64,000 nt of DNA, taken from Bacteroidia bacterium (GTDB taxonomy: Bacteria > Bacteroidota > Bacteroidia > NS11-12g > UBA955). The notes under the pieces are model-generated. The model did not search any database and was not told where the DNA came from. It was given only the letters and a program-made list of their open reading frames with translations. Shown piece after piece: positions 12,761 to 63,958 of this stretch; the stretch's first letter is position 1, and every line of letters starts with the position of its first letter. Location of the stretch: assembly GCA_041391605.1 (NCBI GenBank), contig JAWKNQ010000007.1, positions 23,195 to 87,194 on the forward strand, read 5' to 3'. A program made the position numbers and the translations under genes.

Positions 12761-15700
12761 ATGACCGTATCTGAATACATTGAAAACCTTAATAAACGCT
12801 ATCAATTAGGCAACGCCACAGAACATACTTTCCGCGGCGACTTACAATCACTAATTGAAAGTCTGGTCCCAGAAGTAGCAGCAACCAACGAACCAAAACG
12901 AATCCAATGCGGCGCCCCCGATTATGTTATAACTAGGAAAGATATACCTATAGGATTCATTGAAGCCAAAGACGTTGGGACCGACCTAAGTAGCAAATCA
13001 CTAAAAGAACAATTCGACCGATACAAGGCATCTTTAAACAATCTTATCATTACAGATTATTTAGACTTTCATTTATATATAGACGGCGCTTTTGTCACCA
13101 GTATACGAATTGGAGAAATCTATAAAGGTGCCATCATAGCCAAACCTGAAAATTTAGAAACATTTGAAAATTTAATCAAAGATTTTTGTTTGCATATTGG
13201 GCAAACGATTAAAAGCAGTAAGCGTTTAGCTGAAATGATGGCAGCAAAAGCAAGAATGTTGTCTGATGTTATAGAAAAATCGCTAAACAGCGATGAAGAC
13301 AAAGATGCCAATAGCTCACTTAAAGACCAGATGACAGCGTTTAAGCAAATACTTATACATGACATCAAACCAAAGGAATTTGCAGACGTTTACGCTCAAA
13401 CTATTGCTTATGGTATGTTTGCGGCAAGATTACACGACCCTACATTAGAAACATTTACCAGACAAGAAGCGGCTGAACTAATACCAAAATCAAATCCGTT
13501 TCTTAGAAAATTGTTTGGTTATATCGCTGGACCCGACATCGACGACCGTATTAAATGGATAGTTGCGAGTTTAGCCGATGTTTTCAGAGCTTCAGATGTA
13601 GCAGCCATCTTAAAGAACTTTGGAAAATCAACACAAACCCAAGACCCTATTATTCATTTTTATGAAACCTTTCTAAGCGAATACGACCCCAAATTAAGAA
13701 AAGCCAGAGGGGTTTGGTATACGCCAGAGCCAGTAGTTAATTTTATAGTTCGTGCAGTAGATGACATATTAAAGACTGAATTTGATTTGCCACAGGGTTT
13801 AGCAGACACAAGTAAAACAAAAATTAAAGTAAATGTCCAAGGCAAGAAAGTAGAACAAGAAGTTCACCGAGTACAGATATTGGACCCAGCAACGGGAACG
13901 GGCACTTTCTTAGCAGAAGTGATAAAACAAATTCATGCGAAATTTGAAGGTCAAAAAGGCATTTGGTCCAACTATGTAGAAAATCAATTGTTACCACGTT
14001 TAAATGGTTTTGAGTTACTGATGGCATCTTATGCAATGGCTCATTTAAAATTAGATTTACTATTGACTGAAACAGGCTATAAACCAACTCGGAACCAACG
14101 ATTCAAAGTATATCTTACAAACAGCTTAGAAGAACACCATCCCGAGACAGGTACTTTATTTGCCAATTGGTTAAGCAGCGAAGCCAATGAAGCGAATCAA
14201 ATCAAAAGAGATACTCCTGTAATGTGTGTAATTGGGAATCCTCCATATGCTGTAAGTAGCAATAATAAAAGTATTGATACGGATGGACATAAAACTTGGA
14301 TTGGACGTTTAATTGATGATTACAAAAAAAACCTAAATGAAAGAAAAATTAACTTAGATGACGATTATATAAAATTCATTCGCTACGGTCAGTATTTTAT
14401 AGACAAGAATGGGAGTGGTGTTTTGGCTTATATATCAAATAATAGTTTCATAGATGGAATTACTCACAGGCAAATGAGAAAAAGTCTATTAGAATGTTTT
14501 AACAAGATTTACATTCTGGATTTACATGGGAGTTCTAAAAAGAATGAAGTTTCAATTAGTGGCGGTAAAGACGAAAATGTTTTTGATATTCAGCAGGGTG
14601 TGAGTATTAATATATTTATTAAATATAACCAGAAAAAACAAAGTAAATCAACCGAAGTGCTACATTCAGATATATTTGGTTTGCGAAAGGAAAAGTATTT
14701 AACTCTTGCCTCAAATTCTTTAAAAACAATCAAATGGGATAAATTAACATTGAAGCCGCCATATCATTTTTTTGTACCAAAGGATTACAATTCAATTAAC
14801 GAATATAACAAAGGTTTTCAGTTTACAGACTTATTTGTAAATTATAATTCTGGTATCCAAACTAAGAATGATAGTTTATCAATACAATTTCATCAAAATC
14901 AAATTGAAGCTGTGGTAAATGATTTCAAAACTGAAGGTGTAAATGAATTGAAAATCAAATATAATTTAAAAGATACAAGTGGATGGACAGTATTAAATGC
15001 TAAAAATGACTTGTTGAAAAATGAAGGCAATTTTTATAAAATATATTATAGACCCTTTGATTTGAGATATATTTATATGACAAATAAGTCAGGCGGATTT
15101 GTAGGCAGACCCAGAATGGATACTATGAGGCACTTTTTGAATGGAGATAATTATGGATTGATAACCGTGAGGCAACAAAGTACATTTGATTTTCAACATA
15201 TACTTATCTCAAATACAATTATGGAAAGTGGTGCAATTTCCCTTCAAACTAAAGAATGGGGCTATATTTTCCCCTTATACTTATACCCTGTTTCAAATAG
15301 CCAATTAAAAATAAATCAAACTGAAAAAAGGATTCCGAATTTGAACATAGAAATTATAAAATTAATTTCTGATAAATTAGGGTTTATATTTTCAAATGAA
15401 AAGGAAATTAGCAAAAATTCTTTTGCCCCTATTGACATATTAGATTACATCTATGCGGTATTATATTCACCAAAGTATCGAGAGAAATACAAAGAATATT
15501 TAAAAATAGATTTCCCCCGTGTACCTTATCCAAAGGACCAGAAAACATTTTGGGCATTGGTTAAACTAGGCAGTGAGTTAAGGCAAATACATTTATTAGA
15601 TAGCCCTGTCATTGAAAAGTATATTACCCAATACCCTATCGACGGCGATAACATTGTTGTAAAACCGATTTTCAAAGATGGCAAGGTATATATAAACGAA

Positions 15701-15901
15701 ACGCAGTATTTTGAAGCGGTCCCTGAGATAGCATGGAATTTTTACATAGGTGGTTACCAACCTGCCCAGAAATGGCTAAAGGACCGCAAAGACAGGGTTT
15801 TAGATTTTGATGACATTCTGCACTATCAGAAGATAATTGTAGCTTTGTTTGAAACAGATAGGATTATGAAGAAAATAAATCAGTTAATTTATAAAGATTA
15901 A
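12761..15901 (+). CDS. Type IIG (MmeI-like) restriction-modification enzyme: N-terminal PD-ExK nuclease, gamma-class N6-adenine methyltransferase, C-terminal TRD
   Basis: GAPDYVITRKD...IGFIEAKD (PD...EAK); LDPATGTGTFL (motif I); VIGNPPYA (motif IV); 1046 aa with no helicase or separate S subunit. Confidence 0.75.
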   Translation: MTVSEYIENLNKRYQLGNATEHTFRGDLQSLIESLVPEVAATNEPKRIQCGAPDYVITRKDIPIGFIEAKDVGTDLSSKSLKEQFDRYKASLNNLIITDYLDFHLYIDGAFVTSIRIGEIYKGAIIAKPENLETFENLIKDFCLHIGQTIKSSKRLAEMMAAKARMLSDVIEKSLNSDEDKDANSSLKDQMTAFKQILIHDIKPKEFADVYAQTIAYGMFAARLHDPTLETFTRQEAAELIPKSNPFLRKLFGYIAGPDIDDRIKWIVASLADVFRASDVAAILKNFGKSTQTQDPIIHFYETFLSEYDPKLRKARGVWYTPEPVVNFIVRAVDDILKTEFDLPQGLADTSKTKIKVNVQGKKVEQEVHRVQILDPATGTGTFLAEVIKQIHAKFEGQKGIWSNYVENQLLPRLNGFELLMASYAMAHLKLDLLLTETGYKPTRNQRFKVYLTNSLEEHHPETGTLFANWLSSEANEANQIKRDTPVMCVIGNPPYAVSSNNKSIDTDGHKTWIGRLIDDYKKNLNERKINLDDDYIKFIRYGQYFIDKNGSGVLAYISNNSFIDGITHRQMRKSLLECFNKIYILDLHGSSKKNEVSISGGKDENVFDIQQGVSINIFIKYNQKKQSKSTEVLHSDIFGLRKEKYLTLASNSLKTIKWDKLTLKPPYHFFVPKDYNSINEYNKGFQFTDLFVNYNSGIQTKNDSLSIQFHQNQIEAVVNDFKTEGVNELKIKYNLKDTSGWTVLNAKNDLLKNEGNFYKIYYRPFDLRYIYMTNKSGGFVGRPRMDTMRHFLNGDNYGLITVRQQSTFDFQHILISNTIMESGAISLQTKEWGYIFPLYLYPVSNSQLKINQTEKRIPNLNIEIIKLISDKLGFIFSNEKEISKNSFAPIDILDYIYAVLYSPKYREKYKEYLKIDFPRVPYPKDQKTFWALVKLGSELRQIHLLDSPVIEKYITQYPIDGDNIVVKPIFKDGKVYINETQYFEAVPEIAWNFYIGGYQPAQKWLKDRKDRVLDFDDILHYQKIIVALFETDRIMKKINQLIYKD

Positions 15902-16890: not shown

Positions 16891-16938
16891 TAGTGGGAGC
16901 TACTGGGTTCGAACCAGTGACCCTCTGCTTGTAAGGCA
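16891..16938. repeat. attR-type direct repeat (overlaps the tRNA-Val 3' half)
   Basis: Identical to 8437-8484. Confidence 0.85.
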
Positions 16939-16968
16939 GATGCTCTGAACCAGCTGAGCTAAGCTCCC
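16894..16968 (-). tRNA. tRNA-Val (anticodon TAC)
   Basis: 75-nt cloverleaf hand-folded: acceptor GGGAGCT/AGCTCCC, D-stem GCTC/GAGC, anticodon loop CTTACAA, T-loop TTCGAAC, discriminator A. Confidence 0.9.
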
Positions 16969-28164: not shown

Positions 28165-28886
28165 AGTTCTTGAAATTTATCAATTTGCAAAGCATTCTCT
28201 ATTCTAAATTGTCCTATTGCCGTTCTTCTTAATTCGTTTAGATAGGCTCCACTTTTTAATTGATGTGCAAAATCATGTGTTAATGTTCTAATGTATGTGC
28301 CTTTACTGCAGTTTACTTTAAACCTCATTTTGGGTAAATTCTTATCGACTTCGAAATGCCTGATCTGTATGACTCTGCTCTTGATTACAATTTCTTCTCC
28401 TGCCCTTGCCTTCTTATAAGCGCGTGTTCCATCTACCTTTATTGCAGAATAGACAGGTGGAGTTTGAACTACATCTCCTGTATTCTTAAGTACAGCCTCA
28501 TCTATATCTGCATTTGTAATGTGTTCATACGGATATTCCCCATTAAACTCTGTTTCTAAATCGATAGAAGGTGTTGTCTTTCCAAAATTAAAGACTCCAG
28601 TGTATTCCTTTTCAAGAGCTTGAATAGACTCAATCATCTTTGTGCATTTACCAGTTGCAATAATCAATAAGCCGGTTGCCAATGGATCTAATGTGCCAGC
28701 ATGCCCAACTCGTGCTGCTTTTGTGAAGTACTTTACTTTTTTAACCAGCTTAAACGACGACCAATGCTCAGGTTTATCAAACAATAGTATCGCACCATTG
28801 CGAATTCTTTGTAAATCGAAATTAGCTTCATTAACTAAGAATTCATCAAGACCTTTATTTTCTTTATTGCTTACTGAAACTTCCAT
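28152..28886 (-). CDS. truB: tRNA pseudouridine(55) synthase
   Basis: GHAGTLDPLATGLLIIATGKCTK catalytic Asp motif. Confidence 0.9.
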   Translation of the reverse strand: MEVSVSNKENKGLDEFLVNEANFDLQRIRNGAILLFDKPEHWSSFKLVKKVKYFTKAARVGHAGTLDPLATGLLIIATGKCTKMIESIQALEKEYTGVFNFGKTTPSIDLETEFNGEYPYEHITNADIDEAVLKNTGDVVQTPPVYSAIKVDGTRAYKKARAGEEIVIKSRVIQIRHFEVDKNLPKMRFKVNCSKGTYIRTLTHDFAHQLKSGAYLNELRRTAIGQFRIENALQIDKFQELCGK

Positions 28887-30732
28887 TGGAAATAATTTGC
28901 TTTCCAGAAACTATGCGGTAATGATAAATTCCAGTAGTCAATCTAGATGTATTGATAAATGCTTTTTGCAATCCCTTATTCTGAAACTCTTTAAGTGTTA
29001 GAATAAGCTTACCAGTATTATCTAAAATAGTAATAACAACTTCAGAGTCTGAATGAATTTCAAATGGCAATGTCAAAACGTCTTTCACAGGATTCGGATA
29101 GGCATTAAAATCATTTTTCATAGCTTGCTGGTGTTGAACCCCAACTTCTGGATCGTTTACACTAATTTTACTCACCCAAGTTCCAACAGCATTTGTGCTT
29201 TTACCATATGATCCAACTACCCAAAACTCATTTTTAACATTGTATCTTCTTTGAATTGATGTGTAATCGCCCCATCTTTCAGCAGTATCTGCAATAAAAC
29301 TGTTGATATAACCTTCACCTTCCTTAAACATAACCAAATCAGAATATTCGCCATCGTTGTCAAAATAAACAATAGTGCTACCTGGGTAGGTATTCTCTCC
29401 ACTGTGTGAAAATGTGATTAAACTTTGCTTTCCAAACACTTCATTTCCGGCGGAAACTATAGTAGGATACGCGAAATCAAGCGTGTCGTTAGAAATAATA
29501 TTTGCCGTAACTGTTGGCAATGGGTTGTCTGGAAATTGAATAATACCGTGGTAAATTGAGGATTTACCGTTAATGGTATTCATACTCGTTTGCACAAATT
29601 GTATTTTATTATTCACATAGAATGCACCTAAAACTCTTGCATCATTCGTTTGCAATCGAAACCCTTGTTGCTTTTGTGGTGCTTCTGGTGGTAATCCATA
29701 CTTTTTATCCGATTTCAATACTTTATAAGAGTACTCTGGGTTTCCATGGCTGTAATTGTGGTTAATACTGTGCAAGAAAACAGTGTCATTGCTTGCATCT
29801 CCAGGACGCACTGACAAAAAATACAAACCTTCCTTTCCGGGTTGAAAAGCATCTTGAACTGGACAAATACTCCAAATTGATTTACCATTGTGCTTGATAT
29901 TACTCCATAAATTGAATTTCATGGTGTCTGCAGAATACCCTTTTATTTTAGGCAATTGCCAAATTACTGATTCCGTAAACCCTTCTCTCCAATCGGTGTT
30001 GTCTTTTAAAATATTAACAGTGATGAATAAGTCTTCTCCGTTAATGGCAATCATAGGATAATCGGTCCAATAGGTTCCTCCAAAAGGATTGCCGTTTAAT
30101 TGATAGACATTCCAACCATCTAAAGGGTTATTCGTTTTACTAAACGCAACAATAATTCTTGTATCAGAACTTAAACTCCCTTCTAAGTAAACGATAATAA
30201 AACGATTGGCTACTGGATCAAAAACTATTTTTGGATCATAACTTCTATCTAGGGCACCAATAACAGTATCGGGATGAGTGTTTTTTGGGTCTTTAGGGAA
30301 AAACTCCAAACTCCAATTTTTAAGAAACTTACCACTGCTCGAATACACACGAATAAAAGTATTTAACACGCTAATCACCATACTATCGTTGTTAATGGCC
30401 ATGTTATTATCATTAGGAGTTCCTTCATTTAAAGCTCCTGAAAAACCCATTTCAACTTGTGGACTTAAAGCAGATCTTTTTATTGACTGAGGGAAATGTG
30501 TGCTTGATAAGCGTTCCCTTCTTTGATTTGCTTGATATATTATGGCTGGATCTATTCCTGCTGGAACAGGATACGAGGTATTCACATTATATATGCCATT
30601 CTGGATACTTGGCAAACTATCGGGTTCAAACACATTATGCAAAGGGGCAGTGCCTTTAGTTAGGATTACTCCGTTCTGGGCATTTAACACACCAAATCCG
30701 AGGCACATCATCCATAAAGTCAATTTTCTCAT
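28864..30732 (-). CDS. T9SS type A CTD-containing secreted protein (function unknown)
   Basis: Signal peptide MRKLTLWMMCLGFGVLNAQ; C-terminal YPNPVKDVLTL...GIYHYRIVSGKQIISNGSFSKQ sorting domain. Confidence 0.6.
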   Translation of the reverse strand: MRKLTLWMMCLGFGVLNAQNGVILTKGTAPLHNVFEPDSLPSIQNGIYNVNTSYPVPAGIDPAIIYQANQRRERLSSTHFPQSIKRSALSPQVEMGFSGALNEGTPNDNNMAINNDSMVISVLNTFIRVYSSSGKFLKNWSLEFFPKDPKNTHPDTVIGALDRSYDPKIVFDPVANRFIIVYLEGSLSSDTRIIVAFSKTNNPLDGWNVYQLNGNPFGGTYWTDYPMIAINGEDLFITVNILKDNTDWREGFTESVIWQLPKIKGYSADTMKFNLWSNIKHNGKSIWSICPVQDAFQPGKEGLYFLSVRPGDASNDTVFLHSINHNYSHGNPEYSYKVLKSDKKYGLPPEAPQKQQGFRLQTNDARVLGAFYVNNKIQFVQTSMNTINGKSSIYHGIIQFPDNPLPTVTANIISNDTLDFAYPTIVSAGNEVFGKQSLITFSHSGENTYPGSTIVYFDNDGEYSDLVMFKEGEGYINSFIADTAERWGDYTSIQRRYNVKNEFWVVGSYGKSTNAVGTWVSKISVNDPEVGVQHQQAMKNDFNAYPNPVKDVLTLPFEIHSDSEVVITILDNTGKLILTLKEFQNKGLQKAFINTSRLTTGIYHYRIVSGKQIISNGSFSKQ

Positions 30733-30963
30733 GTCACAAAAATAACACAAGATTCTGATATATTTAACGTTAAGACTATAAGATTACTCGACATTGCACA
30801 CATTGTCGCTAACAATTTAAGGCTTATTTGAATTCAACTTTATTCTAAGTGATTGATAAAATGAATTTTCACTTGATTTTAAAAGCAGAATAACTGTTGT
30901 TTTGTGAGCACACTTTGTTTAAAACTCCTTTTGCAACAGAGAAGGGTAATTGTTTAATTTGCA

Positions 30964-32200
30964 TTGAAAATCATGATCATCCGAAGTTCCCCAAAAATCT
31001 TGTTCATTATACTCTTAAGTGTATTAACATTTGATATTTACGCGCAAAAAACTGCAGCAAATGAAGACAAGATAAAATTGTATAACACTGCAATTGAACT
31101 CTATGACAAACAGCTTTACAATGCGGCTATCTCCAATTTTATGGATTACTTGCCATTTGCATCTGATGCTGTTAACATTAGCGATGTTGAATATTACATC
31201 GCTAGTTGCAAGTTAAAACTGCTGCACAACAATGCACTTTCAAATATGTTGGATTTTATCGACCGTTACCCAAATAGTCGTAAAATAAATAATGCGAACC
31301 TCGAAGTTGGTGATTATTATTTTAACATTAAAAAGACAAGAAGTGCGCTTTCGTATTATAAAAAAGTAGATTTATATGGCTTAAGTAAGGAAGACAAACA
31401 AAGGTTTTATTACCGCAGATAGTATTCATACATGAAATCAAACAAGTACGATGATGCTCGTGAATCTCTTTATCCCCTTACGACAACAGAAAACCCATAC
31501 AGAACTGAAGCCACCTATTATTACGGGTATTGCAGTTATATGGAAAAGGACTACAACAAAGCGCTTTTAGCCTTTAAAATGGTTGAAAACAAAAACATTG
31601 GCGCTGTTCAATTATACATTGCAGAAATCTATTATTTGAAAGATGATCACCAAAAAGCAATCGACTACGCATCCGGAAAGACTTCGGTGAATTGAACAAA
31701 AACCGCGATATGTTACTCGGTAAATCTTATTACCGATTGGGTGACTACAAAAACGCTCAAGAATTCTTCGAAAGAAGTAACTACAAAATAGCTGATCTCA
31801 CTAATGCTGAAGCCTATGAAATTGATACACCTATTACTCAAATAAAAACTGTATTAAAAGTTCTGAGCTTTTCGAAAAGATTGCGAATACTGGAGATGCA
31901 ATGGCTCAAAGTGCGAGTTATCACTTAGGTGATTGCTTTCTTAAAGTTGGCAAGAAACAAAATGCTTTTAACGCTTTCTTTGAAGCTCAACGCACCGACT
32001 TTGATAAGAAAATCCAAGAAGAAGCTATGTTTACCTTTGCAAAACTCGCTCAGGAATTGGAGTTTAACAATAAGGCCATCGCCGCCTACCAGCGTTTTAA
32101 AGAACTGTTTCCACTGTCGTCTTACAAGAATGAGGTTGGAAAAACTTGGCCACCCTTCTATACAGCAGTAACGATTATAAAACAGCAATTGATGTTTTAG
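30964..32200 (+). pseudogene. Decayed N-terminal ~400 codons of a large TPR-repeat protein (in-frame TAG at 31420-31422 plus 3 frameshifts)
   Basis: Four successive TPR-containing ORFs in different frames (30964-31422, 31432-31695, 31692-31928, 31901-32200); signal peptide at 30964. Confidence 0.5.
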
Positions 32201-33987
32201 AAGAAATGAAGATTTCGGATGAGTCGACTAAAGAATTATATCAAAAAATCTTGTTTTTAAGAGCACAAGAATTATACATTCAAAAAGACATGAGCAATGC
32301 CGAAGAAATGTTTAAACGTTCTTTAGCCAATAAAGTTGACAATGGTATTGCTGGGCAATGTTATTTTTGGTTAGGTGAAATTGAATACTTGCGTCAACGC
32401 AATGACAATGCTAGAACTTACTACCAGAAATTCCTTGACAATGCTGAGTCGAAAAAGACCAGTTATTATCCAAATGCGATATACGGAATTGGGTATACTT
32501 ATTACAAGCAAAAAAAATACGCCGAAGCTTCAAATTACTTCAACAAATACAAACAAAGCATTGGCTATACCCTTCCTGAAAACATGTTTCACGATGCCAC
32601 TATGCGTTTAGGCGATTGTTATTTTGCAATTTCAAATTACAACGCAGCATTAGATGCATATACCTATATTATAAGTAATAGAAAAAGTGGTGCCGACTAC
32701 GCCATGTTCCAACAAGGTATGATCTATGGTCTTCAAGGTAAGTCTACAGCTAAGATTAATATCCTTAAAAAAATCTCTCGCGATTACCCGAATTCATTAT
32801 TTATTCCTGAAGCCATTTTCCAAACCGGTGAAGTGTATTTGTCGCTAGAGAATTACATTGAATCAGAAAGGAACTACAAATACTTAATTACTGATTATCC
32901 GAATAGTCCTCTTGTTAAAGAATCTCACGTGAAACTGAGCAGTATTTACTACATCCAAGGCGAATACGACAAGGCAATTGATGAGTACAAATACATTGCT
33001 TCTACTTATCCTGGAACTCCAGAAGCTCAAAAAGCCATTAAAAATGCTGAAACCGCATACAAAAAGAAAAGCGATGTAAAATCTTATGTAGAATGGGTAA
33101 AAACTTTACCGAATGTCAACATCAGCACAAGTCAAGAAGACAGTTTGTATTACGATGTAGCTTACAGAAAATATAATTTAGGCAAATATCAGGAAGCTAA
33201 TCGCGACTTCAAAGAATACCTGAATAATTTCAGTGATGGATATTTTACGCTTCACGCTCATTACTATTCTGGGTTGAGTTACTTACAACTTAAGGATACC
33301 AACAATTGCATCTCTGAGCTAAAATACATCGCTGATTATCAAAACTCGGAATTCAAAGAGAATGCACTTTTACAATTGTGTAACATCTACACAAAACGCA
33401 ACGACTGCCTTTCGGGACAAGCCTACTTTGAATTGCTTGAAAAATACAGCAGCAACACGGTTTCTTCGCGTAAGGCAATCTTTGGCCAAATGGTGTGTTT
33501 AAATAAGAACAAGAACTATGAGAAAGCCAAAATCAAAGCTGAACAACTTCTTAAGTACGATTTGCTTACCAATACTGAAAAAGGAGAGTCTAATAATACC
33601 ATTGCACGTTATTACCTAAATGACAGTTTATATAAAGTTGCCTCTGTTTATTTTGGACGCACCTTAAAAAACCAACAGGATGTGTATGCAGCTGAAGCAA
33701 AATACTATGAGGGATACTCTAGGTTTATGCAAGACAGCTTGGATAAATGCCGCAAGAGTATAATGGAGTTTAACAACCAGTTTAATAACTATGATTTCTG
33801 GCTTGGTAAAACCTTTATTTTGTTATCCGACTATTATCTAAAGAAAGGCGAAGAATTCCAATCCAAAGCAACCTTGAACAGTGTTTTAGAAAACTTTACA
33901 AATCCTGAAATATTAGCAATCGCTCGTGAAAAACTAAGCTTACTAGAAGCTAAGAATAAGTCGAAAGCCAAACCCCAAGGCGACTAA
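32146..33987 (+). CDS. Tetratricopeptide-repeat protein (major intact C-terminal part of the ~1000-aa TPR gene)
   Basis: 613 aa of tandem TPR motifs (YxxA...Y...G pattern). Confidence 0.6.
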   Translation: MATLLYSSNDYKTAIDVLEEMKISDESTKELYQKILFLRAQELYIQKDMSNAEEMFKRSLANKVDNGIAGQCYFWLGEIEYLRQRNDNARTYYQKFLDNAESKKTSYYPNAIYGIGYTYYKQKKYAEASNYFNKYKQSIGYTLPENMFHDATMRLGDCYFAISNYNAALDAYTYIISNRKSGADYAMFQQGMIYGLQGKSTAKINILKKISRDYPNSLFIPEAIFQTGEVYLSLENYIESERNYKYLITDYPNSPLVKESHVKLSSIYYIQGEYDKAIDEYKYIASTYPGTPEAQKAIKNAETAYKKKSDVKSYVEWVKTLPNVNISTSQEDSLYYDVAYRKYNLGKYQEANRDFKEYLNNFSDGYFTLHAHYYSGLSYLQLKDTNNCISELKYIADYQNSEFKENALLQLCNIYTKRNDCLSGQAYFELLEKYSSNTVSSRKAIFGQMVCLNKNKNYEKAKIKAEQLLKYDLLTNTEKGESNNTIARYYLNDSLYKVASVYFGRTLKNQQDVYAAEAKYYEGYSRFMQDSLDKCRKSIMEFNNQFNNYDFWLGKTFILLSDYYLKKGEEFQSKATLNSVLENFTNPEILAIAREKLSLLEAKNKSKAKPQGD

Positions 33988-48256: not shown

Positions 48257-48556
48257 TTAATCTATTTGTCGTCTCGTTAAATCCCTTGCGGAGTGATGAA
48301 TTGTTAAAATGTGAATAGTTTCGGTATTAATAATCTTATAAATAATTCGATAATTTCCTTCAATAAGTTCACGAAATATCTCATTATTCATCTCTGGAAC
48401 CAGCTTTCCAGCATATGCATGCTGTTTCAGAATATTGGTTCTTACCTTCAATTTAATGATTTCTATTTTCGCATACTTTACAGAATCTTTTGAGATGTAA
48501 TCATAAATTCCTTTTAAATCATCAATTGCGAGTTTGGTCCATTTTACTTGAACCAT
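48257..48556 (-). CDS. Type II TA toxin, RelE/ParE family
   Basis: 99 aa; ...NYRIIYKIINTETIHILTIHHSARD RelE/ParE fold signature. Confidence 0.7.
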   Translation of the reverse strand: MVQVKWTKLAIDDLKGIYDYISKDSVKYAKIEIIKLKVRTNILKQHAYAGKLVPEMNNEIFRELIEGNYRIIYKIINTETIHILTIHHSARDLTRRQID

Positions 48557-48726
48557 TTCTGCATTTCAATTTCAAGTTCTTGCTCATTCAAAACTTCGTT
48601 ACCCTCTGATTGTTGATTTCCTCTTTCAATTTTGTCCAAAAGGATAATTTTATCAATCAGTTCCTCCAAAGTGAACTCATCCGGAAACTGTTCAAGCGTT
48701 AAAGTCAGTTGTTTCTTGGTGATCAT
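48544..48726 (-). CDS. Cognate antitoxin (small acidic protein)
   Basis: 60 aa; overlaps the toxin start by 13 bp, upstream in an operon. Confidence 0.5.
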   Translation of the reverse strand: MITKKQLTLTLEQFPDEFTLEELIDKIILLDKIERGNQQSEGNEVLNEQELEIEMQKWFK

Positions 48727-48849
48727 TATTAGATTGTTTCATACAAAGATAAGAAATTTCAGCTTTTCAAAGTGAATTGCTTGAGAAAATTTGGATGCTA
48801 TTATTAAGAAAAATGTTTCTTCGGTACTAGAATCCGACATGTAGTATAA

Positions 48850-54183: not shown

Positions 54184-56598
54184 CTACCTCAACACTACTT
54201 GTATGGCTTGTTCCTTATCCAATCGGATAAAAATGATACCCTTAGCTTCAAAGTTTAAATCTATTTGGTTCATTCCGGAAGTTAATTTGCCCTTCATCAT
54301 TTCCTCACCCAGTATGTTGTAGATGTGGTATTCAGTGTTCTTGTTTAGGTTGTTCAATTGAATATTCCTTGTCGCATTCGGATTGGGATATACATAAGAT
54401 TTTATAAGTGGTACTTCAAATGTCACTATTCCAGTAGGACCACTGTATTCCACAGCACCGCGATCAGAATACTGATTGTTGCGCGAGTTGCCATACACAT
54501 CCAAAAGATTGTAAGAAACAGAAGGAACATTGTTTTGATTCCAAAACAATTTGGACGCGTATGTGGAGCTGTCAAAATGATTTCCATTTGAACTATCTGC
54601 ATTGAACTCTTTTATACCCATGTTTAAACCAATCCATCCATCAATGGTTGAGTCCATTCCGTTGTTGAATTGTGTGGTGTATGTTTGACTGTCTACATTG
54701 TTCACATAATAGGTATTATGACTCACATCAAGTGAGGTATTACTCAAGACTTGGATATCCGCAAACTTACTATTCTGCACATCGAAAATATTTCCAATTA
54801 TATTTGTATTCGCGTACCTGTACATCAAACTTCTCAGGGCTGTTGCTTCGTGATCTGAATATGTACTCATGCTGCCATCTATCTTCACTGTGTTTTGTCT
54901 AAGTTCGTAATTCGAATTTACAGAATCTATACTGTAAGCGTATATGCCTGTTGTTCCATACACCCCAATATTGTCGACAATTAAATTACTCAATATCTCC
55001 ATCTTAATATTGTTGTAAGCATATATCCCGTAATTGTATCCGATGATACCAGTATTCTTATTGTTCTTTATCACATTCCTGGCGAGGTGATAATTACCTG
55101 ATTGATACAAATACATATTGTACATGTAGTAATGTTTGGTTTCGTTGCCTTCAATTAAGTTATCGGTGATTTTAAAGTCGCCATTATTAAAACAAAAGAT
55201 ATTGTAGGTGTAGTAATAATCTGATTCGTTGTTTCGTATGGTGTTCCCTTTAATATGTATTGTTCCAAAGGTGTCCAATTTAGAATTGCCGTAAAAATAA
55301 ATGCGGTAGGTGTAGAAATTTGATTTTCCATTGTTCTCAATCACGTTGTCATTTATTTCCTTTGTTCCAGCGCTTAGCTGAGGTAACACATTTTGTATAC
55401 CATACCATTCATAGCCCCCATCGCAATCTATAATCTTGTTGCCATTTATTTTATAATGACCACCTATCAGGCTATTGTGAAACCCATAAAAATTTTTACC
55501 AGATGCACTGGTCACTGGTACATCATTATTTCTTGAGACATTGGATAGGATTTCAATGTTTTTGCAATTTCGCGTGTAGCAAACGGTCAAATCTTTTGCT
55601 GCACGCAATCCGAGAATGTTATTGCCCTCAATTAAAACTCTTCGAGCATCAGTTCCAATCATGTCAATGCAAGTTATTCCGTACATGATGCCTATACTTC
55701 CAAATTGTTGGGAAGTGTCTCTATTCCAATTGAGCAAATAGTTGTTTCGAATCACATTTTGCCTTGATGTGGAATATGCCTTCTCTGAATAAATCCCCAT
55801 TAAAGTATAAGCGCAATCGTCTGCTTTGGTGCTAAGTCGGGTGACGATATTACTCTCAAGTAAATTGCCATTTGTATGCAACATAAAAATACCGATATCC
55901 GAAAAGTTCTGAATGAGGTTTCCAACGATGTTGGTATTCTGAGCAACGGTCTTGTAATTGGTTTTGTTTCCTTTTACGACTATGGCATAACTCGGCCCAG
56001 GACTGTTGGCATTAGTGGTCCACATTTTATTGTATGAAAAGGTGTTGTATAAACCTAGGTCCGTGCTGCTGCTATCGGCTAAAGAAGTAGCAGATTCTGC
56101 CATGGCAATGTAGGCCGCGTATTTTGCAGAGTAGTTAACGAGATTATTAAATTCAATTGTACATTTAGTAATGGTGTTATAAGAAGAGGCATTGCTTAAT
56201 CGTACCCCAATTGCGTAAAAACTAGAGGACGTATTTAATATCCGCAAGCTGTCAATTGAGAGGTAATTAATGCCTTTTAACAAAACAACAGCATCCCCCA
56301 GATTAGCACTCAAGGTATAACCATTCCCATTTACAGTAATGGTATTTGTTGCCGACACACCAGATATGGCAGGAAAAGAAACGGAGTTTTGTTCCACGCG
56401 ATCACTCATCACATTTAACACAACCGCAGCAGATACGCCATTGTTGAGAAGAGCTTGGGAAAAGTCTTGCCAATTCTGAAAATTTGTTCCTGAAGTTGCG
56501 CTAGTCGAATCCAGGGTATAGGTACCTTGAAGCGGAGCAGCATATGCACACTGTACAAGAAAGACAAGAACGAAGACGAACTGTATTTTTTTTATCAT
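54184..56598 (-). CDS. Right-handed beta-helix repeat protein with T9SS type A CTD
   Basis: Signal peptide; repeated NxxIxxN beta-helix turns; C-terminal YPNPNATRNIQLNNL...IFIRLDKEQAIQVVLR. Confidence 0.7.
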   Translation of the reverse strand: MIKKIQFVFVLVFLVQCAYAAPLQGTYTLDSTSATSGTNFQNWQDFSQALLNNGVSAAVVLNVMSDRVEQNSVSFPAISGVSATNTITVNGNGYTLSANLGDAVVLLKGINYLSIDSLRILNTSSSFYAIGVRLSNASSYNTITKCTIEFNNLVNYSAKYAAYIAMAESATSLADSSSTDLGLYNTFSYNKMWTTNANSPGPSYAIVVKGNKTNYKTVAQNTNIVGNLIQNFSDIGIFMLHTNGNLLESNIVTRLSTKADDCAYTLMGIYSEKAYSTSRQNVIRNNYLLNWNRDTSQQFGSIGIMYGITCIDMIGTDARRVLIEGNNILGLRAAKDLTVCYTRNCKNIEILSNVSRNNDVPVTSASGKNFYGFHNSLIGGHYKINGNKIIDCDGGYEWYGIQNVLPQLSAGTKEINDNVIENNGKSNFYTYRIYFYGNSKLDTFGTIHIKGNTIRNNESDYYYTYNIFCFNNGDFKITDNLIEGNETKHYYMYNMYLYQSGNYHLARNVIKNNKNTGIIGYNYGIYAYNNIKMEILSNLIVDNIGVYGTTGIYAYSIDSVNSNYELRQNTVKIDGSMSTYSDHEATALRSLMYRYANTNIIGNIFDVQNSKFADIQVLSNTSLDVSHNTYYVNNVDSQTYTTQFNNGMDSTIDGWIGLNMGIKEFNADSSNGNHFDSSTYASKLFWNQNNVPSVSYNLLDVYGNSRNNQYSDRGAVEYSGPTGIVTFEVPLIKSYVYPNPNATRNIQLNNLNKNTEYHIYNILGEEMMKGKLTSGMNQIDLNFEAKGIIFIRLDKEQAIQVVLR

Positions 56599-56725: not shown

Positions 56726-59115
56726 TTACCTCAACACCACTTGTATGGCTTGTTCCTTATCCAATCGTATAAAAAAGATACCCTTAGCTTCAAAGTTTAA
56801 ATCTATTTGGTTAAGTCCAGAAATTAATTCGCCCTTCATCAATTCCTCACCTAGAATGTTGTAAATGTGGAACTCTTCGTTATTGTTTAAATTATTCAAT
56901 TGAATTTGCCTTGTCGCATTCGGGTTGGGGTATACATAGGATTTAATAGCTGGAGTTTCAAATGTCTTTACTGAAGTTGGACCGCTGTACTCCACTCCAC
57001 CTCGATCAGACAATTGCTTGTTGCGCGGGTTGCCGTATACATCAAAAGATTGTAAGAAACAGATGGAACATTGTTTTGGTTGCCGAACAAAAGACTTTCA
57101 AATTTAGTGTTAAAAAATGATGTCCCTCAGAATTCATTGTATTAAATTCTCCTTCACCTTGAGTGGAAGCTATCCAGTCATCTATGTTTGAAAAGAAAAT
57201 GTTTATACTTGAAGTTCTGTATTCTTGTTTAATCGAATCTTCAATAAAATACGAATTGTGTTCAATCACTTCATCTGATTTTCCTTTAAAACGCAATATC
57301 ATTGAAGTCACGCGTTGAACATCAATTATATTACCAATACATTTTGAACTCACATAGTTCTCCATGGACAAGTCTAATGGATATACATCTTTATTTCCTG
57401 TGCTCGAATTTCCTCCAGCAATAAGGATAGTATTTTGCCTTACTTCAAAAGTATTATTGTTATTTCCTCCACCATTAGAAAATATGGACTTAACCGTGCT
57501 TTGCTGAAAATACTGATGAACTAAGTTACTAGCAATTCGGATATTGAAGTTATCCCACAAATATATCGCCACGTGTAAATTACCTAAAGAACTATTTTCA
57601 ACAATTCTATTTCTTGCGATATCTAAGTCGCATTGATTGTAAGCATAAATATGATAGATTGAACCTTTAATGGATTCATTAATTGATATTGAATTATCTA
57701 AAATATTTATTCTCCCTTGCAAACAATAAATACCGTAAGTACTGACAACTTCAGAAGAGTTTTCAATAGTATTCCCTTTTATTTCTATTGTTTCATTTGA
57801 GTCTAAACTCCTTGAACCGTTACAGTATATTCTATAGGTATTAATTCCAGAATTGAAATTAAACGTTATCCTATTGTGATTAATTTCCCGTTTTTTGTTT
57901 CCAATAGCAGGATCAGCACTCACTATGCCAAACCATTCTTTTCCACCATCACAATTCTGAATTGTATTACCATTTATCAAATAAGAACCTTTCGTATATT
58001 CACATAAAACTCCATAAGATAAAGAAGCATAATTTGGATCAGCATCATTATCCTCGAAATTATTATTCTGTACAATTATGTAACTGCAATCAAATATCCC
58101 AATACTAAATAAACTATTTTTTACCCTAAGCCCGCGCAATGTATTATTTGATACCTTAAAGTTTAAGTCTTCGCTCCCTGAAATCTGCCTAGCATAAATA
58201 CCTTTCAAGTGCTGTATCCTTTCGAACAAATTTGATGAATCTCTATTCAAGTGGTGAATGTAATTATTTAAAATTGTATTTGACCTTAAACTTGCACCTG
58301 CTTTCTCTGAATAAATAACATACATAGTAATTCCACATTTATCATGTCGAACATTCAGTCTCGAAATATCATTCCCTTCAATTTGATTACCATTGGTGTG
58401 TAACATGAATATACCATACATGGAAAAATTCAATATTCGATTTTCAAGAATTGTGTTGTTTTGTGCTAGTGTTTTATAGGTGTCATAATTCCCCTTGATT
58501 ACAATTCCGTAACTCGGTCCGGGACTTTCAGAATTTGTTGTTTGTAAAACATTCTTATAAATTGTGTTGAATGAACCTAAATTAACGTTCGAACTATCTT
58601 CCAGTTTTAATATGGATTCTGTGAACGCTATATAGGCTCCACTTTTCAGAGCTAAAGAATCTAAATTCGAAAATTCAACTAAACAACGCGAAATTTGGTT
58701 GAAGGATGAAGCATCACTAAACAGAATACAAATGGCATTTACATTGTTTGATGTATTCTGTATTCGTAAACTGTCTACAGTTAAATACTGAATTGCCAAA
58801 TGTATCACGGCTTCAGCGATTGGAACTAAGCAAATGACCATTCCCATTAATTCGAATTGTTTGGGTTGAAGATGTCCCTGCAACACTTGAGAAAAATTGA
58901 TAACTTGAGATTCAATGCAATCCTCATTACATTTAGAACTACAGATGCAGAAACACCTTCGCTTACAAGACTTTGGGTAAAGTCTTGTCAATTTTAAAAT
59001 TAGTCCCTGAAGTAGGACTGTCGAATCTATGTATTTAGTGTGCCTTGAAGGGGAGCTGCATACATTGTTTGTAAAAGAACAAAAGAAAGAAAGTGCTTAG
59101 TAAATTTTTAATCAT
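56726..59115 (-). pseudogene. Tandem paralog of 54184-56598, pseudogenised (in-frame TAG at 59027-59029, multiple frameshifts); C-terminal CTD nearly identical to the intact copy
   Basis: 95-aa CTD fragment ~85% identical to the CTD of the upstream gene; N-terminal MIKNLLSTFFLLFF...PLQGT* parallels MIKKIQFVFVLVFL...PLQGTYT; shared upstream 60-bp segment. Confidence 0.6.
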
Positions 59116-59235
59116 AGGAGTGCTAAGTTGATGAGTTTTAGAGATAATTCTATTTTCAAATATATGGAATTATTAAATAAGATACAAGCACATAGCATAA
59201 TGACGAAATTATGACAGATACAAGTTGTTCCTAAC

Positions 59236-59320
59236 TCTTGGGCGCCTTTTCCTCGTCAGCCTGAGGCGGATCTTTGCTCCCGTGTTGTGCACCAAGTTGC
59301 TGATCTCAGGGCGCGACATT
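59236..59320. other. GC-rich (~57%) structured intergenic island (nested inverted repeats GCGCC/GGCGC and CCTGAG/CTCAGG)
   Basis: Composition outlier in a 33% GC genome; no ORF; candidate small RNA or structured regulatory element. Confidence 0.3.
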
Positions 59321-59824: not shown

Positions 59825-61282
59825 ATGAAACAAATAAAGCTACTCATCACCCTATTTACAGTTTTCTTCCTCTTCAATCAAGCCCAAGCCGCTTGTAATT
59901 GGAGCGCAAACATTCGAAGTTTCAATGTGCGTGACACCTGTAATAACACCACCTTAAAAATGATTCTTGGCAGTATTTCTCTCAATAACTCGAGTAATAT
60001 TAGCTATGAATGGTCAGTGTCTGAGAAAAAGGGAAATAAATGGCAAAACAATACCTATAACTACTATTACTTCCCAAGTAAGAACGGCAAATACAGCATC
60101 TGTCTTAAGTTGAGAGACTCTGCTAACAAATGCGACACAACACTCTGCACCACCATTAATTTTAATTGTTTACCAAAATGCAATTGGAAGGGTCAAAACA
60201 TCTTTTTTGGATACATCGACAGTTGCTGGAAAAAAATGATACAAACTGGCATGCATGGGTATGTAAGGATTAACAACAACTATGTCACCGACTACGTATA
60301 TACGTGGACAATTAATGGAGATACAATGAGTTCCGATTCGCACTCTATCAATCATATTTTTACTAAAAATGGGAAATACACATTGTGTGTGAATGTCAGA
60401 GATACCGTAAACAATTGCGACACTACTATGTGTGGTACAATGACAATAAATTGTTTGTCTAACTGCAATTGGAAAGACCGCAAAGCAGCTTTTGTCAGCG
60501 GAGATTCTTGTGGTAAAAACTTCAATTACATCCACAGTCGTATCTTATTTGCTGGCAAATACCGCAGCGATTACATTTACAAATGGACCGTTGATAGCAC
60601 AACACTGAATAGACCTTATGCAGATATCAATTACACGCCTAAATACAACGGAACTTATAAAGTATGTGTAAAGGTTATGGACACAGCAAACAATTGCGAT
60701 ACCACTTATTGCACGACCGTTAAAATGACTTGTATGCCTTCGTGTGATTGGAATGGCCGCAAAGCAGCCTTTACCAATGGCGACTCCTGTGGTTCGAACT
60801 TTAATTTCATTCACAGTCGCATTCTTTTTGGCGGCAAATACCGCAGCGATTACATCTACAAATGGACTGTAGACAACTCAACTCTTAAATCGCCTTACGG
60901 GTATATGAGTTACGACACAAAGAAAAACGGTACTTATAAAGTGTGTGTGAACGTTACCGATACTGCTAATAACTGCGATACCACCTACTGCACAACAGTT
61001 AAAATGACTTGTGCACCATCCTGCAATTGGAAAGATCGTAAAGCATCAATTACAGTTGCCGACTCATGCAATCAATACTTTAATATTATTCATGGAGGAA
61101 TGGTGTTCAACGGCAAATACCGCAGTGACTTTATATACAAATGGACCATAGACAGCGCTGTTGCTAAATCACCTTATGGTTCTTTTGATTACTCAGTAAG
61201 TAAAAACGGAACCTATAAAGTGTGTGAACAGTTTAGATTCAGCAAACAATTGCGACACAACTTATTGCAAGTGTTAAAGTAG
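59825..61282 (+). CDS. N-terminal part of a T9SS-secreted protein built from tandem ~90-aa cysteine-rich PKD-like repeats
   Basis: Signal peptide; repeats C(N/D)WK..RK..DSC...KYRSDYIYKWTV...NGTYKVCV.V.DTANNCDTTYC; the frame is lost at ~61240. Confidence 0.6.
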   Translation: MKQIKLLITLFTVFFLFNQAQAACNWSANIRSFNVRDTCNNTTLKMILGSISLNNSSNISYEWSVSEKKGNKWQNNTYNYYYFPSKNGKYSICLKLRDSANKCDTTLCTTINFNCLPKCNWKGQNIFFGYIDSCWKKMIQTGMHGYVRINNNYVTDYVYTWTINGDTMSSDSHSINHIFTKNGKYTLCVNVRDTVNNCDTTMCGTMTINCLSNCNWKDRKAAFVSGDSCGKNFNYIHSRILFAGKYRSDYIYKWTVDSTTLNRPYADINYTPKYNGTYKVCVKVMDTANNCDTTYCTTVKMTCMPSCDWNGRKAAFTNGDSCGSNFNFIHSRILFGGKYRSDYIYKWTVDNSTLKSPYGYMSYDTKKNGTYKVCVNVTDTANNCDTTYCTTVKMTCAPSCNWKDRKASITVADSCNQYFNIIHGGMVFNGKYRSDFIYKWTIDSAVAKSPYGSFDYSVSKNGTYKVCEQFRFSKQLRHNLLQVLK

Positions 61283-61776
61283 ATTGTATCATCGTGCAAT
61301 TGGGCTGCCCGCAAACCAAACTTCGACTTATTCGACTCGTGTAGCAAGACCAAAGATGGTATTGTCTGGTCGTATAACATTTAATGGCAAAGCTCGTGGA
61401 ACCATTTATCAATACAGCGTCAATCAAAAGCCTATTAACGGCAATGGTGCTGAGTTTGCACATTCCATATACATGCTAATGGTGGCTATACCAGTTTATG
61501 TAAATGGTCAGCACCGCCGACAATTGCGACACCACCTTCTACAGAATCCATTAGAAGTGTATTGCATTAAAGGCTGCAACTGGAAAGACCGCAAAGGCAA
61601 CATGACCTTATTTGATTCATTGCCAATAACTTCAAATTACTTTAGGTGAGTTTCAATTCGCTGGTAAATACAATACCAGTTACATTTATAAATGGACCGT
61701 CAATAACGATTCCATCAACACCAACTACCCATTTATTGGATACACATTAAAAAACAATGGAACATTCAATGTATGT

Positions 61777-63795
61777 GTGCGCGTTATAGACACAGTAAAC
61801 AACTGTGACACCACATATTGCAAAACCATTACCACCAATTGTTTTAAATCGTCTTGTATTTGGAAAGACAAAAAACCGGATTTCAAAGTGATCGATTCGT
61901 GTTTAGGAAATAACGCTGTCTTCATTGGATATGTTTTATTCAGAGGCAATACCAACAGCACCTACACCTATCAATGGACAGTCAACAATGTTCCAGACAC
62001 CAAATACAAAGGCAATTCCCTGTACTCTTACATCACTAAAAATGGCACTTACACCGTTTGTGTTCGTGTAAAAGACACCGCCAACAATTGCGACACCACT
62101 TTCTGTGAAACCTTTAAAATAACTTGCTTGCAAGCTTGTGATTGGAAAAGCCAAAAACCGAAATTTGAATTCAGTGATTCATGCTTCAAAAGCAGTGCAA
62201 AAATCTTTGCTCACTTGACTTTTAATGGTAAGTACAACACCAAATATGCTTACAAGTGGAGTATCAACCAAAATCAAACGAACTCTACTTCGCCTTATGT
62301 GGTCGAAACATTTAGTAAAAATGGCTATTATACATTCTGCGTCAACGTTTACGATTCTGTAAACAATTGCGACACCAACTTCTGTGAAACCATCCAAATA
62401 AAATGTCTCTCAGGTTGTGATTGGAAATCTATGAAACCGAATTTCTACTTAACGGATTCATGTAATGCGAAATCACTGCACTCAGGAATTTTCTTCAATG
62501 GTAAATCGCGTACTGATTTGCAATACACATGGCGTTTGAATGGCAAGGTATTCAATTACAACGATAATATTGTTTCGCAAACCATTAGCAGCAACGGTGG
62601 ATATACTGTATGTGTTACAGTATACGACTCCAGCAAAAACTGCGACACCACATTCTGCGAATCCATTAAAATTAATTGCTTTAAAGCATGCAACTGGAAA
62701 GACCGCAAGCCGGATTTATCCGTTATAGATACCTGTGGAAGAAACATCAACGCATTGAGTGGTATTATATACTTCAATGGTAAATACCGCAGCGATTACA
62801 TTTACAAATGGACTGTAAACAATACAACTCTTAACTACACAGGTCCTTCGATGTACCACAATCTGAATAAAAATGGAACCTACTTTGTGTGTGTAAATAT
62901 AAAAGACACTGCTAACAACTGCGATACTACTATCTGTAAGACAGTGCAAGTAAACTGCATCACTTCTTGCAATTGGAAAGACCGCAAAGCGAAACTAGAG
63001 GTGTGGGACACTTGCCGAAACACATGCAAAGAAGTATTCAACCGAATTGATGGTTGGATTACATTTAACAACAAAGTAAATACATCCTACAAATATACCT
63101 GGCGTATCAATGGAACAATTGTTCAAAAAGACTGGGCATTCTTGCTAAATCCAGTTTCTCAAAACGGGAAATACACAGTTTGCCTGACTGTTCATGACAC
63201 AATCAACAATTGCGATACAAGCTTCTGTGAAACTGTTTATATGAACTGCATTCAAAAATGCAACTGGTCGCGAAATATGCCGAAACTTTACTTAAAGGAT
63301 TCGTGTAGTAAGAACTTTACAAAAATCATTGGTGAAGTAGACTTCAAAGAATGTCGCAAATCGTCTTACCTATACAAATGGACTGTTAATGGTACGCGAT
63401 TAAATTACACAGGACCTGCAATGTTGTACGACTTGAAAAAGAATGGAACCTACACCGTTTGTATCAATGTGTACGACAGTGTGAACAGATGTGACACCAC
63501 AATCTGCGATACACTTCAAGTGAAATGCCCAACCCTCGGCATAGGAAAATCCTTCCAAGCAATTAAAACCATTATCGTTTATCCTAACCCAACACAAGGC
63601 GAGATAAAATTTGAGTGGAATGGAGGAGCTGCTAAGTACCAATTAAGCAACCAACTGGGACAAATCCTCATGGAAGGCGAAGTAAATGAAACCGTAAATG
63701 TCCTTAACCTCAAAGGCTACAAACCAGGTGTATATGGATTGAGAATCATTGAAAACAATCAAGTGTATGTTAAGTCGATACTCTTGTTGGAATAA
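61777..63795 (+). CDS. C-terminal part of the same repeat protein, ending in a T9SS type A CTD
   Basis: Seven more repeats, then VYPNPTQGEIKFEW...GVYGLRIIENNQVYVKSILLLE. The intervening 61283-61776 holds two decayed repeat copies in shifting frames. Confidence 0.6.
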   Translation: MRVIDTVNNCDTTYCKTITTNCFKSSCIWKDKKPDFKVIDSCLGNNAVFIGYVLFRGNTNSTYTYQWTVNNVPDTKYKGNSLYSYITKNGTYTVCVRVKDTANNCDTTFCETFKITCLQACDWKSQKPKFEFSDSCFKSSAKIFAHLTFNGKYNTKYAYKWSINQNQTNSTSPYVVETFSKNGYYTFCVNVYDSVNNCDTNFCETIQIKCLSGCDWKSMKPNFYLTDSCNAKSLHSGIFFNGKSRTDLQYTWRLNGKVFNYNDNIVSQTISSNGGYTVCVTVYDSSKNCDTTFCESIKINCFKACNWKDRKPDLSVIDTCGRNINALSGIIYFNGKYRSDYIYKWTVNNTTLNYTGPSMYHNLNKNGTYFVCVNIKDTANNCDTTICKTVQVNCITSCNWKDRKAKLEVWDTCRNTCKEVFNRIDGWITFNNKVNTSYKYTWRINGTIVQKDWAFLLNPVSQNGKYTVCLTVHDTINNCDTSFCETVYMNCIQKCNWSRNMPKLYLKDSCSKNFTKIIGEVDFKECRKSSYLYKWTVNGTRLNYTGPAMLYDLKKNGTYTVCINVYDSVNRCDTTICDTLQVKCPTLGIGKSFQAIKTIIVYPNPTQGEIKFEWNGGAAKYQLSNQLGQILMEGEVNETVNVLNLKGYKPGVYGLRIIENNQVYVKSILLLE

Positions 63796-63924
63796 TATGT
63801 CTGAACTTGGATTTGGGGAGATTATTTGGATTAAAGAGATATTGTGACTGGAAATTATTTGTAATCAAAGAAACAAACACAATCCAAATTCCGAAGATCA
63901 CTATAAAAAACACAATATAAATAA

Positions 63925-63958
63925 AAAAGTCCCGCACGATGTGTGGGATTTTTTTTAT
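63925..63958 (+). terminator. Rho-independent terminator
   Basis: CCCGCAC-gat-GTGTGGG (one G-U pair) followed by ATTTTTTTT. Confidence 0.6.

Follow-up and report, generated by a model that had tools for sequence, protein, structure and literature searches.

Proteins exported via the T9SS (type IX secretion system) bear a Sec signal peptide together with a C-terminal domain (CTD) that the T9SS recognises, after which they are either released or anchored at the surface, as outlined in two accounts of the system (PMC12618676, PMC10202324). Type A cargo of this system, known for example from Flavobacterium johnsoniae and Porphyromonas gingivalis and captured by the models TIGR04183 and PF18962, is one of the closest described counterparts of the gene analysed here, which lies at 59825-63795 (+ strand) of a 64,000-nucleotide stretch (hereafter, the window) from the 94,572-bp contig JAWKNQ010000007.1; the source record is a metagenome-assembled genome (MAG) labelled ‘Bacteroidia bacterium’. 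Like such cargo, the gene encodes an N-terminal signal peptide (putative) and a CTD that scores above model cut-offs, and its neighbours are CTD cargo genes as well; unlike such cargo, its product has no enzymatic or lectin head, being made of PKD units only, and its frame is interrupted between the signal peptide and the CTD. A second counterpart is the PKD domain itself (PF00801/PF18911), found in ColG/ColH, PrtV, Epp and human polycystin-1, which, like the units of the window gene, measures ~90 aa and is arranged in tandem extracellular modules. A third, retrieved as a structural match, is the rod of BIg domains in Salmonella SiiE, which resembles the window protein in being a long string of beta-sandwiches with a presumed projection from the surface, and differs from it in belonging to another domain family, in using the type I secretion system (T1SS) and in drawing its rigidity from Ca2+ rather than from disulfides.

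Taken as a whole, our favoured reading, which we hold with some reservation, is that this is a T9SS cargo gene encoding 13 disulfide-stapled PKD domains, that its repeat array is old, and that the frameshifts in its centre are artefactual. If this is true, little changes: the gene becomes one more member of a widespread, uncharacterised family of T9SS-secreted PKD-array proteins.

Gene architecture

Three consecutive plus-strand open reading frames (ORFs) make up the gene: 59825-61282 (485 aa), 61284-61649 (121 aa, in another frame) and 61777-63795 (672 aa). GenBank splits it accordingly, with MEZ4804645.1 assigned to 59825-61282 and MEZ4804647.1 to 61777-63795. The sequence TG(C/T)GA(C/T)AC, which encodes Cys-Asp-Thr, occurs 13 times in the gene at a spacing of 273-291 bp, and cutting at a fixed offset from this motif gave 13 units (U1 to U13) of 91-97 codons, in good agreement with a preliminary description of the locus, which had counted ~13 tandem Cys-rich PKD-like repeats with a period of ~270-290 bp. 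Ten of the 13 units are in frame and align well with one another, and the unit alignment bears out the six conserved Cys per repeat that had been described (in CNW, DSC, VCV, NCDTT, TxC and xxC). The motifs that the same description had listed for each unit (KYRSDYIYKWTV and others) proved to be less general, since they are present only in U3, U4 and U11, and nearly so in U5.

Once corrected for frame, the whole gene (59825-63795, +, ~1,320 codons) reads as a signal peptide, 13 PKD-type units, a linker and a type A T9SS CTD. Upstream of U1, the segment MKQIKLLITLFTVFFLFNQAQA has, by inspection, the n, h and c regions typical of a Sec signal peptide and an AQA-A site, and we therefore annotate a putative Sec-type signal peptide (MKQIKLLITLFTVFFLFNQAQA, followed by A) at 59825-59890. 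The units free of frame damage are U1 (59891-60178, 96 aa), U2 (60179-60463, 95 aa), U3 (60464-60742, 93 aa) and U4 (60743-61021, 93 aa) on the 5' side of the centre, and U8 (61852-62136, 95 aa), U9 (62137-62415, 93 aa), U10 (62416-62688, 91 aa), U11 (62689-62967, 93 aa), U12 (62968-63258, 97 aa) and U13 (63259-63537, 93 aa) on its 3' side. A short linker of 13 residues (GIGKSFQAIKTII, 63538-63576) connects U13 to the CTD (63577-63792), which matched TIGR04183 with 31.0 bits (cut-off 23) and PF18962 with 31.4 bits (gathering threshold, GA, 27), the model match covering aa 601-668 of the 672-aa ORF. The protein had been proposed as type A T9SS cargo from its C-terminal end, and these above-threshold matches confirm the CTD.

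Downstream, ~130 nt past the stop codon, a strong G+C-rich hairpin followed by a U-run (63923-63955, +; dG −18.3 kcal/mol, z −5.3) probably serves the gene as its intrinsic terminator. Within the gene, the plus strand has no terminator-like sites, and matches from a sigma-70 promoter scan did not exceed shuffled expectation, Bacteroidota promoters being outside the scope of that tool. Rfam and tRNA scans returned nothing in or near the gene. Antisense ORFs of up to 121 aa within it are unsupported and were dismissed as repeat-induced.

The repeat unit as a divergent PKD domain

Both long ORFs match PKD models when scores are summed over units, with 38.5 and 35.4 bits against PF00801 (GA 23.5) and 36.5 and 51.4 bits against PF18911 (PKD_4; GA 27). 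Lone units stay below the Pfam gathering scores, reaching 12-19.5 bits over profile positions ~28-84, with their first ~33 residues unmatched. Among NCBIfam models, none matches the unit, and both the N-terminal CNW...DSC third and the Cys pattern fall outside every Pfam and NCBIfam model. When an alignment of 70 units (10 from the window and 60 from homologues; A2) was turned into a profile and compared with PDB sequences, the best solved relatives were Clostridium collagenase ColH PKD domains (E 1.5e-5), in a match that pairs Y-K-W-x-V-N-G with Y-x-W-D-F-G-D-G. Comparison by hhalign of A2 with A4, an alignment of canonical WxFGDG PKD units from the family members P0101 and P0058, gave 98.7% probability (E 1.8e-16) over 57 columns (34-91).

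Structurally, the AlphaFold2 (AF2) model of U11 obtained with A2 is all-beta, with 6-7 strands and a mean pLDDT of 94.3. The top Foldseek matches of this predicted model in the PDB were all PKD domains (6aem, 4l9d, 4tn9, 2y72, 1b4r), the proteins represented being Vibrio Epp and PrtV (PKD1), ColG and ColH, polycystin-1 (PKD1) and SorCS2, with TM scores of 0.57-0.69 and E values of ~3e-3. Whole-ORF Pfam scores, hhalign and AF2/Foldseek thus agree with the PKD-like core noted in the preliminary description, and, as judged from profiles and the predicted fold, the unit is one complete but divergent PKD domain. That description had also held that the repeat does not obviously correspond to a named domain, and had put forward a profile comparison (PKD, Cys-rich or Ig-like) as a check. 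The comparison points to PKD, with the hhalign probability given above, and together with the whole-ORF scores and the Foldseek matches it supplies the name; what stands of the earlier view is that lone units fall short of Pfam cut-offs and that the N-terminal third and the Cys pattern are unmodelled.

In common with known PKD domains, the window units have a predicted beta-sandwich, and their C-terminal two-thirds fits PKD profiles (Y.W...(N)G.Y.V.L.V.D). They differ in having (Y)KWTVNG where PKD domains have WDFGDG: the Trp is kept (W41, in at least 90% of units), and GDG is lost, its place being taken by V/I-N/D-G/N/S. They differ as well in an N-terminal CNWK turn, strand A and DSC that have no Pfam counterpart, in six Cys per unit (eight in most relatives), and in structural similarity that reaches just the TM range given above. 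No pertinent account of a Cys-rich PKD/T9SS domain came up when the literature was searched.

Homologue family and cysteine pairing

A search with the 672-aa ORF returned 269 proteins at E≤1e-5, all of them, the query itself aside, at most 39% identical to it. Nearly all have PF18962 and PKD matches, and the named homologues come from MAGs assigned to Bacteroidia, Bacteroidota, Flavobacteriaceae and Chitinophagaceae. A hidden Markov model (HMM) of the window units recognised 3-11 units per protein in the best 120 of the 269 homologues. Among 1.84 billion cluster representatives, a profile search gave 15,457 matches at E≤1e-3, of which 4,534 reached E≤1e-10 and 523 reached E≤1e-30. Generic Cys-bearing PKD proteins account for many of the weaker matches, which fit the C-terminal half only, and for part of the 523. 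The top match, P0123, has 1,304 aa and 13 units, and the window gene is, jointly with it, the longest family member. A cluster-mate, P0122, is an unrelated 51-aa peptide and was set aside as a clustering artefact. Seven distant loci in GTDB MAGs each hold one unbroken ORF with the plan signal peptide-(unit)n-CTD, and no synteny was found between the window and these seven loci. The family is widespread in uncultured Bacteroidota, and uncharacterised.

The same overall plan, signal peptide-(PKD)n-CTD, is seen in multi-PKD T9SS cargo with canonical units (P0101 from bacterium SCSIO 12741; P0058 and P0066 from Bacteroidetes MAGs), in which the VC...nC...C positions in strands F and G are shared with the window units. 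Their units keep WxFGDG and have ~4 Cys, whereas those of the window are of the CNW...NCDTT subtype; P0058 contains both unit types within one protein. The CNW...DSC...NCDTT unit, with its six to eight Cys, is a recognisable PKD subtype whose single domains are missed by Pfam and NCBIfam, and a dedicated unit model would improve annotation of the family.

Candidate disulfide pairs were deduced from the statistics of Cys co-loss. Eight Cys are present in 335 of 497 full-length homologue units, the extra two lying at ..C.KY.W and DTC. Within these 497 units, C68 and C83, which occupy opposite positions on the two strands (63-73 and 78-88) of the predicted F-G hairpin, are lost together in 46 of 46 cases, and C36 is absent from all 92 units that lack C75; the C36/C75 pair is missing from every window unit and from 19% of homologue units. 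These paired losses point to defined disulfides and supply a covariation-based disulfide map for this unmodelled PKD subtype. As for the other four, C78 and C90 are invariant, C1 is found in 94% and C16 in 99% of homologue units, and, because parallel A'-G pairing is usual in PKD domains, C1-C78 and C16-C90 would be the expected disulfides.

Clustered frameshifts in the centre of the gene

The preliminary description had called the central copies frame-scrambled, and this is what we found. Frameshift-aware alignment of 61022-61851 with three copies of the unit profile yielded eight frame changes, which together define a damaged patch at 61217-61640 (+) and, in the deposited sequence, separate the signal peptide from the CTD. 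U5 (61022-61298) is undamaged up to 61216 and then has indels at 61217, 61269 and 61291; U6 (61299-61572) has indels at 61364, 61467, 61502 and 61543; U7 (61573-61851) has one, at ~61620-61640, and is undamaged from ~61645. The frame follows the path F0>F1>F2>F0>F1>F0>F2>F1>F2, with which the tblastn pieces are concordant. Whether there is an in-frame TAA (61627) depends on the position given to the last shift: at 61620 the stop is present, and at ~61640 it disappears at the cost of a Cys16-to-Leu change.

All eight indels fall within 404-424 of the 3971 bp of the gene, with none in the other 3.57 kb, and under uniform placement of eight events the probability of so narrow a range is 8e-7. U5 was compared with U3, U4 and U11 in two parts: identities were 75%, 65% and 61% over its last 80 nt, where three indels lie, and 63%, 67% and 56% over the first 195 nt, which are undamaged; the damage in U5 is indel-only, with no excess of substitutions where this is measurable. 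With an HMM made from homologue units only, frame-corrected U5, U6 and U7 scored 79, 72 and 94 bits, the intact units scoring 89-105. Neutral decay would spread disruptions along the gene and bring an excess of substitutions; the indels are instead clustered, and the damaged part of U5 shows no such excess.

At least three other genes of the window show comparable damage. One is a TPR gene at 30964-33987 (+), now in five pieces that are contiguous ORFs on one strand (30964-31422, 31432-31695, 31692-31928, 31901-32200 and 32146-33987), four of which match YbgF/BamD-type TPR models, and every break lies in 31422-32200, a span of ~750 bp. In the adjoining right-handed beta-helix T9SS cargo gene (56726-59250, −), the CTD is in a separate frame, on a 95-aa ORF (56726-57013, versus 57042-58991), and the frame changes at least twice just after the signal peptide (~59000-59250, over ~150 nt). 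More dispersed breaks characterise the region 5872-7669 (+), where short ORFs of one strand follow each other in a string with alternating frames (5872-6129, 6189-6359, 6500-6667, 6637-6831, 6779-7186 and 7293-7439) that ends in a CTD-like fragment at 7532-7669 (...GIYFYTVKT...); a weak match to choice-of-anchor O is its sole database support, and the string is probably one heavily fragmented T9SS cargo gene. Long ORFs without breaks, the largest of 1,116 aa, are nonetheless numerous in the window. A Markov-model frame scan of the window has low sensitivity and served as a pointer only, not as a full list of broken genes.

Origin of the frameshifts

Short indel bursts that lack extra substitutions and recur from gene to gene in a metagenome assembly are compatible with consensus errors, and on balance we favour an assembly or consensus artefact of the MAG as the source of the frame scramble. 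Long-read (meta)genome assemblies are known to suffer from frameshifts caused by small indels, a point made in two studies (PMC9262707; 10.1101/2021.08.23.457338). With consensus or assembly errors as the most likely source of the frameshifts, the organism itself probably has an intact gene. In practical terms, such bursts split long genes into several GenBank ‘hypothetical proteins’, which calls for caution with the protein set of this MAG.

Several points limit the artefact reading or weigh against it. The indels are not clearly associated with homopolymers: one run of ≥4 was observed in the target patch against 8.2 expected, and the other patches are not depleted, so that the depletion test is inconsistent between patches. 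A look-up of contigs for the exact protein gave no independent copy of the locus, two GTDB genome scans and two JGI metagenome scans gave no close relative, and across the protein database, GTDB genomes and JGI metagenomes no relative exceeded 39% identity. U6 is the most divergent unit, without three near-invariant residues (W41, D73 and C83), and has the lowest family-HMM score. Finally, T9SS cargo accounts for three of the four genes with damage (P ~0.03, a rough estimate from gene lengths), which might reflect a genuine loss of surface proteins or else poor assembly of strain-variable regions.

Some of these points would suit a true, recently inactivated pseudogene, with all eight indels carried by the organism, which we consider possible and yet clearly the less likely account. 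Neither product would then reach the surface, the 485-aa fragment for want of a CTD, the C-terminal part for want of a signal peptide. The broken state of the deposited sequence, the three altered residues and low score of U6, and the breakage of two neighbouring or nearby T9SS cargo genes all speak for it, and surface-protein genes are common targets of gene loss. Set against this, the confinement of eight indels to 404 bp is unlike neutral decay, and natural decay is dominated by substitutions, which are not raised alongside the indels where this can be measured. Nonsense codons number at most one, depending on the alignment, and the other 10 units are intact, with a dN/dS of 0.07 between U3 and U4.

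It is also conceivable, though improbable, that the clustered indels are real and stem from a localised mutational process of the lineage, such as error-prone repair, or recombination that aborts between diverged units or strain-variable segments, by which short bursts of indels inactivate genes for surface proteins. If that were true, it would have left the same pattern in four genes of the 64 kb, three for T9SS cargo and one for a TPR protein, and the gene would exemplify a targeted on/off mechanism for surface antigens in an uncultured Bacteroidia lineage.

Age of the repeat array

Contingency or phase-variable repeat genes offer a further comparison, which the window gene resembles in having tandem repeats in a surface protein (presumed here) and a unit number that varies across the family, and from which it departs in units that share 42-75% DNA identity, in saturated synonymous sites and in the lack of long exact repeats. 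The preliminary description had regarded the units as near-identical, with several adjacent ones at ~85-90% DNA identity, and had read this as recent expansion and as a substrate for variation in repeat number; none of this was upheld. In a MAFFT alignment of the 13 units, the most similar DNA pair is U3/U4 at 75%, with U3/U5 and U4/U5 at 66%, and identities span 42-75% over all pairs (median 52%) and 46-75% over adjacent pairs; protein identity among intact units is 30-76% (median 40%), U4 being the closest paralogue of U3 at the protein level as well (76%). The example pair given for high identity, 60470-60735 and the stretch 279 nt downstream, is 75.6% identical in an ungapped comparison. 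Tandem Repeats Finder (TRF), which had been suggested as a check, reported a 279-bp period with just 2.1-2.3 copies and 74-76% matches (60468-61154). Low DNA identity between units had itself been named as an outcome that would tell against the earlier view, and it does so for the claims of expansion and variation.

By the Nei-Gojobori method, the proportion of synonymous differences (pS) was 0.66-0.91 in every unit pair tested, at or near saturation, and even U3/U4 had a pS of 0.71 and a dS >2, with a dN of 0.15 and a dN/dS of ~0.07. Exact matches extend to 23 nt at most where units adjoin, and to 32 nt at most when all pairs are considered. Low identity, saturated synonymous sites and short exact matches make the array a poor substrate for slippage or homologous recombination. 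Evolutionarily, U1 has its best matches in unit 1 of the homologues P0014, P0004 and P0003, and U2 in unit 2 of P0006, P0003 and P0002, both being closer to these positional counterparts than to the units of their own gene, which argues that the array is old. Most units are nearer to units of other proteins or equidistant from all, and U3, U4 and U5 form the sole lineage-specific cluster among the units of the gene. The array is ancient and under purifying selection, and the gene is not a recently expanded or slippage-prone repeat.

As a separate observation, a tract of 32 identical nt (AAATACCGCAGCGATTACATTTACAAATGGAC, encoding KYRSDYIYKWT) is shared by U3 (60557-60588) and U11 (62782-62813). 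Synonymous sites between these two units are otherwise saturated, and the tract could reflect a small gene-conversion event or constraint at the codon level.

In view of these values, we judge it very unlikely that the gene is a recently expanded, near-identical array forming a contingency locus, in which copy number shifts by slippage or recombination and the scrambled centre is a by-product of rearrangement or a strain copy-number polymorphism collapsed by the assembler. Such a locus would be in keeping with the 3-13 units found across homologues and with the U3-U5 cluster, and a mixed-strain consensus could yield local indel mosaics. It would also be in keeping with P0123, in which units 3 and 5 are 94% and units 2 and 4 are 84% identical in amino acids, indicating a recent duplication of a two-unit block (u2u3 versus u4u5). 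Going by these sequences, array growth does occur in the family, just not recently in the window gene, whose best unit pair reaches only 75% DNA identity with saturated synonymous sites, whose adjacent units share exact matches of at most 23 nt, in which TRF sees ~2 copies, and most of whose units are no closer to each other than to those of other proteins; the databases searched held no close relative for a comparison of copy number.

Least credible of all is the existence of two or three separate functional genes (485, 121 and 672 aa), or of one gene read by programmed frameshifting. In its favour, all three ORFs exist and GenBank gives protein accessions to two of them. Against it, the start codon of the 672-aa ORF is a GTG within strand F of the PKD domain of U7, with no signal peptide there, the 485-aa ORF stops inside U5 with no CTD, and the 121-aa ORF is an out-of-frame read of U5 to U7. 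The gene also lacks an internal terminator, its promoter-like sites are no more frequent than expected by chance, complete homologues are all single ORFs, and we know of no precedent for eight consecutive programmed shifts in both directions.

Proposed export and surface role

That a T9SS exists is implied by the four further genes of the window that encode a CTD. Returning to the reading of an intact T9SS cargo gene, we propose that the protein would be exported by Sec and then folded oxidatively in the periplasm, with three disulfides formed per domain, after which the T9SS translocon would recognise the CTD, which would be removed, and a rod of 13 stapled beta-sandwiches would be released or anchored at the surface. 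Nothing but PKD domains lies between the signal peptide and the CTD, and no catalytic domain is present. Functionally, such a PKD rod may be a protease-resistant, mechanically stable stalk or adhesin, and a disulfide-stabilised surface stalk or adhesin is the most likely role. The least conserved stretch of the unit runs from the KW motif to NGTY and, in the AF2 model, lies in loops after strand C; these variable C-C'/E loops are the likely contact surface, if the model is correct.

Several T9SS type A cargo genes of the window are located at 28864-30750 (−), 54184-56598 (−), 56726-59250 (−) and 59825-63795 (+), three T9SS cargo genes standing side by side at 54-64 kb. R2852_03940, a flanking gene that encodes an 804-aa cargo protein, has its nearest homologue at just 43% identity.

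Other features of the window

At 8615-15901 (+), a tyrosine-integrase-like ORF (8615-9892) precedes a small excisionase-like ORF (11334-11624) and ORFs of 354 aa and 1,046 aa. A tRNA-Val at 16893-16968 (−) lies nearby, and together they may form a putative integrative mobile element. Adjacent ORFs of 64 aa and 102 aa (48260-48738, −) occupy an otherwise empty gap of 800 bp, and the 102-aa product resembles, by eye only, a RelE/ParE-type toxin (…YRIIYKI…IHILTIHHSARD…).

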